Assembly (NCBI GenBank): GCA_037440685.1
Contig: JBBITQ010000279.1
Coordinates: 1 to 26,724 of the forward strand
Origin: Clostridiales bacterium
GTDB lineage: Bacteria > Bacillota > Sulfobacillia > DYIH01 > JBBITQ01
DNA: 26,724 bases
Direction of reading: 5' to 3'
In this document: piece by piece, positions 23,550 through 26,371 of the stretch
How the letters are laid out: each line of letters opens with the position of its first letter
Numbering within the stretch: position 1 is the stretch's first letter
Made by a program: the position numbers and the translations under genes
The notes under the pieces: model-generated
Databases searched by the model: none
Told to the model about the DNA's origin: nothing
The model's input: only the letters and a program-made list of their open reading frames with translations

Positions 23550-24563
23550 CTATTCTGGCGTCACTTCGATCTCTTGCTTCTTGCCAAAACGCAGAACACT
23601 CAGCTTGACCGGCGATCCGATCTCGCACGCTGCCAACAGATTCAAGGCTGCTGTGGAATCGGCGACCGCCTTTGTATCCACAGCAAGCAGGATGTCGCCT
23701 TTCTTGAGACCAGCATCCTCAGCAGCGCCACCGTCTAAAACCTGCGTTACCATGACTCGGCTTCCACGTTGCTCGACTCCCATGCCGAAGGAAGCCGGAA
23801 TACTTGCCGTCACTCGAATCCTGCGGATGGCGAGCGGCAACTCACCCATGTAGCCAATCGAAAGCATCGTGTTCAGTTGGATGGCTTCGCCGTTGACACG
23901 AAACTTGTATTCCCGCTGTTCCGAACTCCCATGTGTGATCTTGAGCAAGTTCTTGAATTGTCCCTTGGGGCCGGGTCTCTCAAAGACAACGACGGTGCTT
24001 GCTTCCACATCTTTCTCGGGCGTGTTTTCCCCGTTCAGCGACACCCCGATCAGGTGATTCCCCGGTGCTGCGGTCAGTTGGAGCAAACCATCGGAGTGCC
24101 CGATCAGTTCCACCTGCATCTCGAATGGCGGTCGGATCATCCGTGGAAAGGGAAGTTGAATCCGCTTCGTCTCGTCGGGGAGCAGTACAAGGACTCCCTC
24201 GTCCCCGTCGATGCTGAGTTGCTTTTCCAAAGCTGTCCGAGCCGGTGGTGCAACAAATGACGGGATCACATCGGCGATCTCTGTGACCTTCGAGAAATCG
24301 TAGGTGACATCGAGCCGACCGTCCTTGAGCTTCGAGACGGTCGCCTTGCCGAAGATTCTCAGATCGGCGGGTTCGGAAGACGATGGCTCACGTTCCTTGG
24401 CCTCCTCCGCAGGACGGCTATCAACTGTCAGCACGCCTGATCCATTTTCATCAACGGATAGGCGAACGGAGGTGAAGGTGATGGCATCGTCTCCAAGGAC
24501 GTTCTGTGCCGAGAAGACGAGAGAGATAAGAGCGAGGGACAAGAGCAGAGATGGTTGCTTCAT
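23550..24563 (-). CDS. Secreted protein with C-terminal PDZ domain, 337 aa
   Basis: Signal-peptide-like N-terminus; FGMGVE..VTQVLDGGAAEDAGLKKGDILLAVD PDZ signature. Confidence 0.82.
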   Translation of the reverse strand: MKQPSLLLSLALISLVFSAQNVLGDDAITFTSVRLSVDENGSGVLTVDSRPAEEAKEREPSSSEPADLRIFGKATVSKLKDGRLDVTYDFSKVTEIADVIPSFVAPPARTALEKQLSIDGDEGVLVLLPDETKRIQLPFPRMIRPPFEMQVELIGHSDGLLQLTAAPGNHLIGVSLNGENTPEKDVEASTVVVFERPGPKGQFKNLLKITHGSSEQREYKFRVNGEAIQLNTMLSIGYMGELPLAIRRIRVTASIPASFGMGVEQRGSRVMVTQVLDGGAAEDAGLKKGDILLAVDTKAVADSTAALNLLAACEIGSPVKLSVLRFGKKQEIEVTPE

Positions 24564-24612
24564 TCGGAAGACTCCTGCGTCTGAGGTTCGGGGATCGTGG
24601 TCTGGTCGTCCG

Positions 24613-24624
24613 TAGCAGGTGCCT
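24613..24624 (-). repeat. 12-nt motif AGGCACCTGCTA, copy 1 of 3
   Basis: 49 nt upstream of the PDZ-gene ATG; identical at 25708-25719 and 26228-26239. Confidence 0.8.
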
Positions 24625-24710
24625 TATGGCATCCAGCAGACTGAGCGAGACCTGAGCCGGAAACGGCTCAAAAAATCCGACGCAGGAGGAGTCAGGGTCG
24701 CAGCAGGCGC

Positions 24711-24747
24711 AAAAAGAAAGAGGAGCGCCGAACCACGACCGCTCCTC
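24711..24747 (-). terminator. Intrinsic terminator GAGGAGCG-N12-CGCTCCTC-TTTCTTTTT
   Basis: 8-bp GC stem followed by a U-rich tract on the minus strand. Confidence 0.7.
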
Positions 24748-24820
24748 ACACCCCCGCCAAGGGGCAGACCAGAACAGCGCATGGCCGACGCCCCCCAAAC
24801 GGGAGCGTCAGTCCAAGCAC
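24746..24820 (-). CDS. Putative 24-aa peptide MLGLTLPFGGRRPCAVLVCPLAGV (leader peptide or small toxin)
   Basis: GTG start after purine-rich GAGATCAGAAGCA; stop overlaps the terminator stem; below the ORF-track length cut-off. Confidence 0.3.
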   Translation of the reverse strand: MLGLTLPFGGRRPCAVLVCPLAGV

Positions 24821-24825
24821 TGCTT

Positions 24826-24865
24826 CTGATCTCAAGAGCCTTGCGGCTCAGGTTGGCGGTTTGTG
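24826..24865 (-). ncRNA. Candidate structured RNA element with GCAA tetraloop hairpin
   Basis: CACAAACCGCCAACCTGAGCC-GCAA-GGCTC in a hairpin-rich non-coding region. Confidence 0.3.
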
Positions 24866-25025
24866 AGGAAGCAGAACCGACTTTCGCAACGTCAATAATG
24901 TGTCATAGGTGGCCAACCTCGGCCACGAAATCTTCGTCTCCTGAAAACAAAAAGGGCGTAGCACCAACATGATGCCACGCCAGCAGTTTACCAGCGAATA
25001 CCCATTGCGGAAAACGGATGGGCGG

Positions 25026-25424
25026 TCAAATGCTTCTGGTTTTCTCCACGTCGGCGATGATGACGCCCACTGTTCCATTTGGGCCAAGGCCGTGCTTCGG
25101 TGTGTCCACCACCATCCGCATGGCCCGTTCGAGCCACTGCCTGAGATCAGCCAGTTTCGGCTTGTCGCCGTAGAGTTCGATGTAGATTGGGGCGACGAAC
25201 CGATGGATCGGGCGGTTGCTGACGGCGAGCATCAGAACGTCGTGGCAGACCCAAGAGGCGTCGTTGGCGTTCGCAAAAACCATCGCCTCGGTTTCCTCTG
25301 CGCTCCAGTCCGAGCCAGTCCAATAGAGCGGATTCCTGAACTCGTCGCCTTTCGCCACGATGACCCGAGGAAACGTGGCCGATCCCTTCTTGATGATCGA
25401 CAGCATGGGAATGTTGTCACTCAT
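25026..25424 (-). CDS. Hypothetical protein, 132 aa
   Basis: SD GAGGAGG 6 nt before ATG 25424; overlaps the upstream gene by 8 nt. Confidence 0.7.
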   Translation of the reverse strand: MSDNIPMLSIIKKGSATFPRVIVAKGDEFRNPLYWTGSDWSAEETEAMVFANANDASWVCHDVLMLAVSNRPIHRFVAPIYIELYGDKPKLADLRQWLERAMRMVVDTPKHGLGPNGTVGVIIADVEKTRSI

Positions 25425-25707: not shown

Positions 25708-25719
25708 TAGCAGGTGCCT
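25708..25719 (-). repeat. 12-nt motif AGGCACCTGCTA, copy 2 of 3
   Basis: 42 nt upstream of ATG 25665; shares 15 nt with the 26227-26241 copy. Confidence 0.8.
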
Positions 25720-26227: not shown

Positions 26228-26239
26228 TAGCAGGTGCCT
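26228..26239 (-). repeat. 12-nt motif AGGCACCTGCTA, copy 3 of 3
   Basis: 38 nt upstream of ATG 26189. Confidence 0.8.
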
Positions 26240-26266: not shown

Positions 26267-26366
26267 GTGGCCAGTTAGATCAACACAAGGTGGCCAAATC
26301 TGTGGCAAATTAGAAAATGGCCATTTCCGTAACCCTTTGATACCAAAGGGTTGCGGTGGCCAAATT
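26267..26366. repeat. Candidate integrase arm-type repeats and hairpin next to the att core
   Basis: GTGGCCAGTT (26267), GTGGCCAAAT (26290), GTGGCAAATT (26302), AAATGGCCATTT (26315), GTGGCCAAATT (26356); CGTAACCCTTTG-N4-CAAAGGGTTGCG (26328-26355). Confidence 0.6.
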
Positions 26367-26371
26367 GCCAG

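Follow-up and report, generated by a model that had tools for sequence, protein, structure and literature searches.

A multicopy structured RNA with two mutually exclusive folds upstream of a PDZ-domain gene: a candidate conditional leader

The intergenic region preceding the gene of a secreted PDZ-domain protein was analyzed in a 26,724-nucleotide (nt) stretch of DNA (hereafter the window), i.e., contig JBBITQ010000279.1 of a metagenome-assembled genome (MAG) deposited as Clostridiales bacterium (GCA_037440685.1). The minus strand of this region specifies a structured RNA of a previously uncatalogued family, absent from Rfam, whose members conserve two mutually exclusive sets of helices, one of which contains an intrinsic terminator while the other buries the 5' arm of that terminator. 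The simplest account of the combined evidence is that positions 24978-24711 of the minus strand constitute the leader of a transcription unit, which would act in cis as a riboswitch-like conditional terminator, a reading to which we assign a probability of slightly below 0.6. The conserved core corresponds to positions 24894-24711 (183 nt), and the full RNA, as judged from its sequence signals, probably measures ~265 nt from a predicted start near 24978 to the terminal U-run. It is located in a 462-nt minus-strand gap between an open reading frame (ORF) of 146 codons (orf146; 25466-25026) and the PDZ gene (24563-23550). A preceding sequence-only reading of this DNA had placed a structured minus-strand element ahead of the PDZ gene, at 24640-24900; the element is real, while these limits proved too narrow.

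Two competing folds of the RNA core

The region 24540-24950 folds with a z-score of -7.07, and none of 100 shuffled sequences was equally stable. Conservation of structure was assessed in an alignment of 50 distinct sequences, with slid pairings and 500 shuffles serving as controls. In the first arrangement, fold A, 94.2% of the alignment cells are paired and compensatory changes, i.e., those affecting both sides of a pair, are found in 40 of 47 pairs, while the corresponding values for the second arrangement, fold B, are 93.1% and 35 of 42 pairs; slid pairings reached 40-53% paired cells, and no shuffle (0/500) matched the observed values. Furthermore, G-U cells greatly outnumber A-C cells among the aligned homologues (293 versus 50), and it follows that the pairing has been selected in RNA transcribed from the minus strand of the window.

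Three hairpins are common to both folds. P0 (24893-24879), which in the family consists of GACGC and GCGUC enclosing a GNRA-like loop and is imperfect in the window, is 98.7% paired, with compensation in all three pairs that were counted. P2 (GAGCC-GCAA-GGCTC, 24849-24836) is 98.3% paired, all of its five pairs being compensated, and carries loops of the GNRA or UNCG types. P3 (24832-24766) is a long irregular hairpin, incorporating the GACGCTCCC/GGGGGCGTC stem, with a conserved internal loop (..GCAG.GC UUGG../..CGGCCAUG.GCUG..); its helices are 86-97% paired and exhibit many double changes.

In fold A, P2 and P3 are mounted on a three-way junction that is closed by two further helices. P1b, in which CCGCCAA (24859-24853) pairs with UUGGCGG (24760-24754), is 99.7% paired, is compensated in six of its seven pairs and occurs in at least 14 distinct compensated variants. 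P1, detected with RNAalifold, is formed by a 5' 'switch strand', CTGC-T-TCCTCACA (24874-24862), and a 3' strand, TGTGAGGAGCGG (24750-24739), the RNA pairing being that of CUGC-U-UCCUCACA with UGUGAGGAGCGG; the P1 helices are 93-98% paired, with up to 26 double changes in the inner pairs. The 3' strand of P1 overlaps the 5' arm of the terminator, and P1 and the terminator thus share the same GGAGCGG arm. In fold B, P0, P2 and P3 are retained, while P1b and P1 give way to an alternative hairpin, P4 (GCCCC/GGGGU; GCCCC-TTGGCG-GGGGT in the DNA, 24765-24750), and to the terminator, T (GGAGCGG.../...CGCUCC, followed by the U-run). P4 is 98.4% paired, with four of five pairs compensated and at least eight variants, and its loop is the 3' strand of P1b (24760-24754). 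Since P4 was left out of the search model, the alignment was not fitted to this hairpin. The simultaneous presence of P1b and P4 would require P4 to close over a fully paired loop, which appears sterically implausible in view of known pseudoknot geometry.

The terminator (24747-24711, minus strand) comprises GAGGAGCG(G)TCG, the loop TGGTT and CGG-CGCTCCTC (3' arm CGGCGCTCCTC), followed by the U-run TTTCTTTTT at 24719-24711. Its hairpin (24747-24720) has 11 bp and one bulge and is predicted to act as an intrinsic terminator; a simple terminator scan overlooks it because of the bulge. Across the family, the stem is paired in 88% of cells with double changes in six of nine pairs, and both the loop sequence UGGUUCG and the U-run are maintained. 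Homology ends a few bases beyond the U-run, except in the two closest relatives of the window, the metagenomic loci L017 and L018. In approximately ten members, the U-run is immediately followed by a retained (A)UGCGCY (24710-24706 in the window); a GCGCC at this position is able to pair with the GGCGC in the 3' arm of the terminator, which would further favour fold A in read-through transcripts.

In most members, the energies obtained by constrained folding for fold A, a hybrid (P1b together with T) and fold B differ by no more than ~3-5 kcal/mol. Two competing folds of this kind are the signature of an RNA switch, and the element combines a covarying structured domain, mutually exclusive terminator and anti-terminator pairings and a 5'-leader position, all of which are expected of a riboswitch. 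The following mode of action is proposed. From 5' to 3', the transcript would comprise, downstream of a sigma-70-type promoter, two variable hairpins flanking a GGAG element, an A/U-rich box, P0, the three-way junction with P2 and P3 closed by P1b and P1, and T. In fold A, CUGCUUCCUCACA..CCGCCAA would pair with UUGGCGG..UGUGAGGAGCGG (P1b plus P1), thereby burying the 5' arm of the terminator, and RNA polymerase would read into the following gene, which is the PDZ gene in this case. In fold B, the 3' strand of P1b would become the loop of P4, GGAGCGG and CGCUCC would be free to form T, and transcription would stop at the U-run. A signal that biases the RNA toward one or the other fold would set downstream expression; candidates for such a signal are a small ligand, a protein and a physical cue, any of which could act on the junction and the conserved internal loop of P3.

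Several other pairings and folds were considered and rejected. A role of the upstream domain as an anti-antiterminator is suggested by the window, where AGGUUGGC (within the upstream hairpin H2) can pair with GCCAACCU, yet there is no family-wide signal: in 24 members, duplexes between the upstream region and the switch strand were no better than those of shuffled sequences (mean z 0.08). A T-box-like pairing of the UGGCGG loop with a tRNA 3' end was dismissed as the loop sequence varies freely with its partner, and a hammerhead core was dismissed on the grounds that the junction strands are of the wrong length and sequence and that the Rfam search was negative.

A coding function has also been considered, as the GTG-initiated ORF of 24 codons (24820-24746, minus strand) which had been pointed out in the sequence-only reading, together with the P2 hairpin, the GACGCTCCC/GGGGGCGTC stem within the ORF and the terminator overlapping its TGA stop codon, is indeed present, as are these other features. 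As a gene, however, this ORF is rejected: its frame is disrupted by length changes in 11 of 17 homologues, including the copy that is 90% identical, its start codon is missing in nine of the 17, and 118 of the 158 insertions or deletions recorded in this comparison are of 1 nt. No Shine-Dalgarno (SD) sequence precedes it. The proposals of a leader peptide, a small protein or a type I toxin that rested on this ORF are consequently abandoned, and comparison with homologues, which had been suggested as a check, revealed conserved structure and multiple copies but not a conserved frame. Mini-ORFs following the upstream GGAG element fare no better, since a start codon occurs at a distance of 4-12 nt in only 17 of 43 loci, with lengths ranging from 1 to 19 codons and no conservation.

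Signals flanking the core

A putative sigma-70-type promoter is located at 25014-24985 on the minus strand, with a -35 box TTTTCC (25014-25009), an 18-nt spacer and a TG-extended -10 box TAAACT (24990-24985). The window copy is weak, with a score of 7/12, and falls below the reporting threshold of the promoter scan. Its relatives possess better versions at the homologous position, e.g., TTGAGA-17-TATGAT in several members, including L054 and L053 (10/12), where it is the sole promoter-like site in 500 nt, and TTGCAA-16-TAAAAT in L065. Across 51 loci, the best promoter score is 8.1/12 on the sense strand, as compared to 6.7 on the antisense strand and 6.15 in shuffled sequences, while scores of at least 9 were obtained for 16 loci versus 2.8% of shuffles. 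The -10 box of the family ends ~92 nt before the core, from which a transcript start near 24978 is predicted for the window.

The 5' part of the leader harbours four elements. Hairpin H1 (GGCGTGGCATCA/TGGTGCTACGCC, then CTTTTTGTTT; 24981-24945) is terminator-like in the scan for transcripts arriving from orf146, while relatives carry a hairpin of unrelated sequence at this position, mostly lacking a U-run. H1 may serve both as the terminator of the upstream operon and as the first hairpin of the leader. The predicted start falls within the 5' arm of H1, and transcripts from the leader's own promoter would miss part of that arm; H1 might therefore halt incoming transcription without halting the leader. 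A conserved purine element, GGAG(A), follows at 24941-24938, and GGAG or GAGG was found 34-62 nt before the core in 43 of 51 loci, as compared to 5 of 51 in a control stretch. Hairpin H2 (GTGGCCG-AGGT-TGGCCAC, 24926-24909) is conserved in position and variable in sequence, most of 24 relatives having a hairpin at this site (mean z -1.5). The H2 word TTGGCCAC / GTGGCCA recurs several times at 26280-26370, near a proposed element junction, and could represent a protein-binding site common to both places.

The fourth element, an A/U-rich box directly preceding P0 (24906-24895), has the family consensus ACAAUUUGA(A/U) and reads ATGACACATTAT in the window. It does not fit a -10 box, and its identification as a boxA/nut site is likewise rejected, as it is unlike the ribosomal RNA (rrn) leaders of five carrier genomes (GTTCTTTGACAA / GATCTTTGGCAA). 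Those rrn leaders (L071-L078, five planctomycete genomes) possess a boxA-like GTTCTTTGACAAAATGGTTGGTG, GTTCTTTGGCAACTTGGTTGGTG or GATCTTTGGCAATATGGTTGGTG 200-330 nt before the 16S gene, followed by a conserved TGGTTGGTG.

Downstream of the U-run, a lineage-specific stretch (24710-24564) is conserved in L017 and L018 only. It includes an anti-SD sequence, CTCCTGCGTC (24688-24679), that is perfectly complementary over 10 nt to the SD region of the PDZ gene, GACGCAGGAG (24581-24572), as had been claimed previously; all 10 pairs can form in the window and L017, and ~6 of them are left in L018. The palindrome at 24670-24653, also described before, reads TGAGCCG-TTTC-CGGCTCA on the minus strand, on which it is kept via G-U pairs. 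A 12-nt word, AGGCACCTGCTA (24624-24613), has further minus-strand copies at 25708-25719 and 26228-26239; these are the only three exact occurrences in the whole genome, and each lies 38-49 nt before a start codon. This word may be a promoter, an operator or an RNA site, and, if it were a promoter, the PDZ gene of the window would gain a second route of expression past the leader. In L017, the PDZ gene and a gene inserted ahead of it are each preceded by a copy of the SD-proximal module, an arrangement suggestive of cassettes in which every gene comes with its own copy of one short 5' module.

Distribution of the RNA family and its neighbouring genes

The Rfam 15 search of the whole window, which had been recommended previously, returned no match at the curated gathering scores, and at E-values up to 10 the region 24400-25150 returned chance hits only, i.e., eukaryotic snoRNA, lncRNA and miRNA models of 14-18 bits. 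The same search on 17 homologous loci yielded one tRNA and nothing else, no tRNA or tmRNA was found in the window, and no earlier description of the RNA was encountered in open-access full text. To our knowledge, almost no regulatory RNAs have been described in the Planctomycetota, a phylum in whose Pirellulales-type members the present family is widespread.

The closest copies, in L017 (a Pirellula MAG) and L018, are 90% and 86% identical to the window intergenic region, respectively, while the flanking genes are 82-84% identical; both are metagenomic contigs in which the RNA adjoins the same genes as in the window. A blastn search of 401 genomes of the phylum of the Pirellula MAG retrieved the window segment ~24900-24706 from 13 further genomes at 71-82% identity. 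A covariance model, built from 18 sequences and available for annotating the family, detected a single copy in the genome of the window, members in 11 of 151 genomes sampled across the phylum, some being much more divergent, and, within the order to which the Pirellula MAG belongs, members in about a third of the sampled genomes (54 of 151), amounting to ~105 copies. Individual genomes hold up to seven diverged copies, and several complete genomes carry the RNA. Tandem copies occur at two loci, i.e., G949:C728:679-871 and 1001-1167, which are 130 nt apart, and G901:C1:210563-210750 and 211263-211442, which are 510 nt apart. In metagenomic DNA contigs of sludge, bioreactor, plant and wastewater origin, the core is shared more widely than its flanks.

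No copy other than that of the window was detected in the MAG itself, in its relatives or in the sample of its phylum, while all close relatives of the contig genes and of the RNA are found in the Planctomycetota and none in that sample. The G+C content of the contig is 57.7%, as compared to 69.2% for the MAG (standard deviation 2.5%, contigs of at least 8 kb), and the contig ranks first of 47 by tetranucleotide distance within the MAG. Either the contig represents an element that was acquired recently, or it comes from a planctomycete and was binned wrongly.

The coupling between the RNA and a downstream gene on the same strand is tight. Counting from the U-run, 47 of 52 loci have an ORF of at least 90 codons whose start is no more than 260 nt away; the gap has a median of 35 nt and does not exceed 60 nt in 33 loci. 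The remaining five loci possess shorter ORFs with good ribosome-binding sites, and a same-strand ORF therefore follows the RNA in all 52 cases. Gaps of 4-60 nt leave no space for a separate promoter, and the genes in question must accordingly be transcribed through the terminator.

The identity of the downstream gene varies. The PDZ protein of the window (337 residues; Pfam PDZ_2, 7e-16) has homologues of 68-88% identity in many planctomycete contigs (Logan, ENA, JGI). In both of the closest relatives, a gene of 0.95-1.4 kb is inserted between the RNA and the PDZ gene, i.e., a DUF1080/3-keto-disaccharide-hydrolase-like gene in L017 (3016-3967) and a PD40 beta-propeller protein gene in L018 (2574-4003), and unrelated genes follow the RNA in 50 other loci. 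The RNA is thus not a leader specific to the PDZ gene. The first codons of the inserted genes in L017 and L018, ATG AAG C.., are conserved together with the leader. The leader seems to have stayed constant while the cargo genes behind it were exchanged; in the window, the PDZ gene and those next to it appear to be arranged as cassettes with a common leader, in contrast to a simple operon. Only the window, L017 and L018 share the genes that lie upstream of the RNA.

Many of the downstream proteins begin with a signal peptide or a lipoprotein box, and the families represented include PDZ, DUF1080, GYF_2, PrsW, RCC1, FG-GAP, kinase, dynamin-like, methylase and AlpA-type helix-turn-helix (HTH) proteins. 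Neighbouring genes are often of the phage or integrative-element type, e.g., terminase, large serine recombinases with DUF2924, IS110 transposase, RepA, ArdC and DNA methylases, with a recurrent block that consists of a PD-(D/E)XK exonuclease, an AAA ATPase and a clamp-like protein, while some RNA copies lie among ordinary chromosomal genes. A conserved partner protein was not found, as no family is present in more than two of 125 neighbours.

Competing explanations and comparison with known systems

A number of observations weigh against the interpretation of the RNA as a riboswitch-like conditional leader. A search for RNA sequencing runs containing the locus found none, and its start, its 3' end and any read-through are predictions from the DNA sequence. 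At equilibrium, the window RNA strongly favours fold A, with a probability of 0.95 for P1 as compared to 0.05 for T, so that termination would need either an effector favouring P4 and T or a kinetic effect, and the default state would otherwise be 'on'. The 45 downstream proteins match 38 Pfam families, each in at most two members, and share no function; the coherent function of controlled genes which is expected of a riboswitch is thus missing, and functionally unrelated downstream genes are unusual for a metabolite riboswitch. The search for a downstream ORF succeeds at 62% of random positions and related loci are not independent, for which reason the raw count of such ORFs is only moderately informative. 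In the window itself, 150 nt separate the U-run from the PDZ start, and this gap contains the 12-nt word that is shared with two other 5' regions and could be a separate promoter. Finally, two loci carry tandem copies, an arrangement that is also common for small RNA (sRNA) genes.

The last of these points leads to the alternative that the terminated ~265-nt RNA is itself the product, i.e., a stand-alone sRNA acting in trans, which would refold to fold A and act through its single-stranded parts (the UGGUUCGGCGCUCC tail, GGAG and the A/U-rich box) or through contact with a protein, while the gene downstream would be incidental. Its own promoter, the conserved intrinsic terminator with a conserved loop, the multiple and tandem copies per genome with heterogeneous flanking genes, and a location in mobile elements, where regulatory RNAs are common, are all consistent with such an sRNA, yet this reading is weakened by the ORF that immediately follows on the same strand in each of the 52 loci, usually 4-60 nt past the U-run and with no space for a promoter, and a plain sRNA has no need of a selected anti-terminator helix that buries the terminator arm; we regard this alternative as rather unlikely. 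Both it and the attenuator were among the explanations offered in the sequence-only reading, and these were ideas of the right kind, except that the attenuator had been cast in its leader-peptide form. We consider it improbable that the leader belongs to a mobile element in which a protein of the element or the host, acting on the nascent leader or on RNA polymerase, overrides T and so ties expression of the cargo gene to the state of the element. Many copies do lie beside terminase, serine integrases, IS110, the exonuclease block, RepA, ArdC and methylases, an AlpA-like HTH gene is directly downstream in L104, and the A/U-rich box followed by P0 with its GNRA-type loop resembles a boxA-boxB layout. 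However, no protein family recurs (at most two of 125 neighbours), the A/U-rich box differs from the rrn boxA of these genomes (GTTCTTTGACAA), and some copies lie in ordinary chromosomal surroundings.

A catalytic or otherwise autonomous structured RNA, e.g., a self-cleaving ribozyme of a mobile element for which promoter and terminator would be secondary, is very doubtful. The three-way junction with conserved junction bases would suit it, as would multiple copies linked to mobile elements and unrelated neighbours, which are usual for self-cleaving ribozymes; but no Rfam ribozyme model matches at E-values up to 10, the junction strands misfit the hammerhead core, and the conserved, exclusive fold with P4 and T points to regulation. 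Even less credence is given to a DNA-level element, i.e., an attachment site, a single-strand origin, an oriT or a mobile-element repeat. The dense inverted repeats and the location in mobile elements, sometimes near integrases, would be in keeping with this, but the excess of G-U over A-C cells (293 versus 50) argues for pairing of one RNA strand, the element is flanked by a promoter and a U-run, and the helix sequences vary freely while pairing is kept. Least probable of all is a leader-peptide attenuator, small protein or type I toxin-antitoxin system based on the 24-codon ORF. Such an ORF is indeed present, with a stop codon that overlaps the terminator, yet comparison refutes these proposals, since neither frame nor start is conserved, most insertions and deletions are of 1 nt, no SD sequence precedes it and no mini-ORF is conserved. 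For a toxin-antitoxin pair in particular, it is also relevant that pairing is selected on one strand and that the antisense promoter signal is not above background. Lastly, that the region is simply the 3' untranslated region of the operon upstream is contradicted by the family having its own promoter and occurring without those upstream genes.

Within the preferred reading of a conditional, riboswitch-like leader, a new riboswitch class may tentatively be envisaged, i.e., an 'ON' switch whose sensor is the three-way junction, whose OFF state consists of two hairpins and which would sense a global signal such as a nucleotide second messenger, an ion or an alarmone, although we hold this to be less likely than not. 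If such a class were real, one signal would be coupled to the expression of dozens of unrelated Pirellulales genes, be they accessory genes, genes for secreted proteins or mobile-element genes. The RNA may, more generally, mark the regulon of a global signal, or constitute a generic 'expression gate' that mobile elements set before their cargo. In a more exotic variant of the proposal, the terminated RNA would expose its P4 loop, and nascent copies may be recognized in trans through base pairing between this loop and their switch strand; the result would be feedback of the dosage or immunity type in which the covarying P1b acts as an 'address' that sets specificity.

Among known systems, the Rhodopirellula-1 motif (Weinberg et al. 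2010, PMC2864571), which had been put forward as a candidate, consists of one bulged hairpin whose base is conserved (AACMA..GAU..GAAC / GUUAUC..GUU). Like the present RNA, it occurs in Planctomycetes before short hypothetical genes (PMC2864571). The present RNA has six helices, however, and the conserved words GATGAAC, GAT..GAAC and GTTATC of the motif are absent from both strands of 24564-25030; this motif has no Rfam model and was compared by its published description and alignment. The trp and his attenuators similarly let alternative 2:3 versus 3:4 pairings decide on terminator formation, although in the present case there is no conserved leader ORF and no pairing links the upstream domain to the switch strand. 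In comparison to the leaders of phage lambda (PR'-tR', or '6S', with Q, and nut/put) and the phage P4 CI and P1 c4 RNAs, the RNA is a covarying three-way junction with an internal anti-terminator, lacking a recurrent Q/N-like gene and a boxA match. It nevertheless shares with them a promoter-proximal structured transcript, a strong terminator and residence in a mobile element, and, as is proposed here, read-through decides the expression of what follows. The riboswitches for c-di-GMP (classes I and II) and for 2'3'- and 3'3'-cGAMP differ in architecture and provide no model match, the likeness being one of distribution only: they too have numerous copies within a genome, before heterogeneous genes whose products are often secreted or surface proteins, and phages and mobile elements carry such riboswitches as well. 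The pbuE/ydhL adenine riboswitch has a two-hairpin junction closed by a P1 helix whose 3' strand is the terminator 5' arm, with conserved junction or internal-loop bases, covarying stems and a gene directly following, all of which have counterparts here. Unlike pbuE/ydhL, to which it has no sequence or model similarity, the present RNA is much larger, has an extra competing hairpin (P4) that undoes P1b and a long 5' extension with conserved elements, and precedes genes that share no pathway. By analogy, its closest parallels would thus appear to be the pbuE-type ON riboswitches in mechanism, the second-messenger riboswitches in distribution, and the phage late and immunity leaders in setting.

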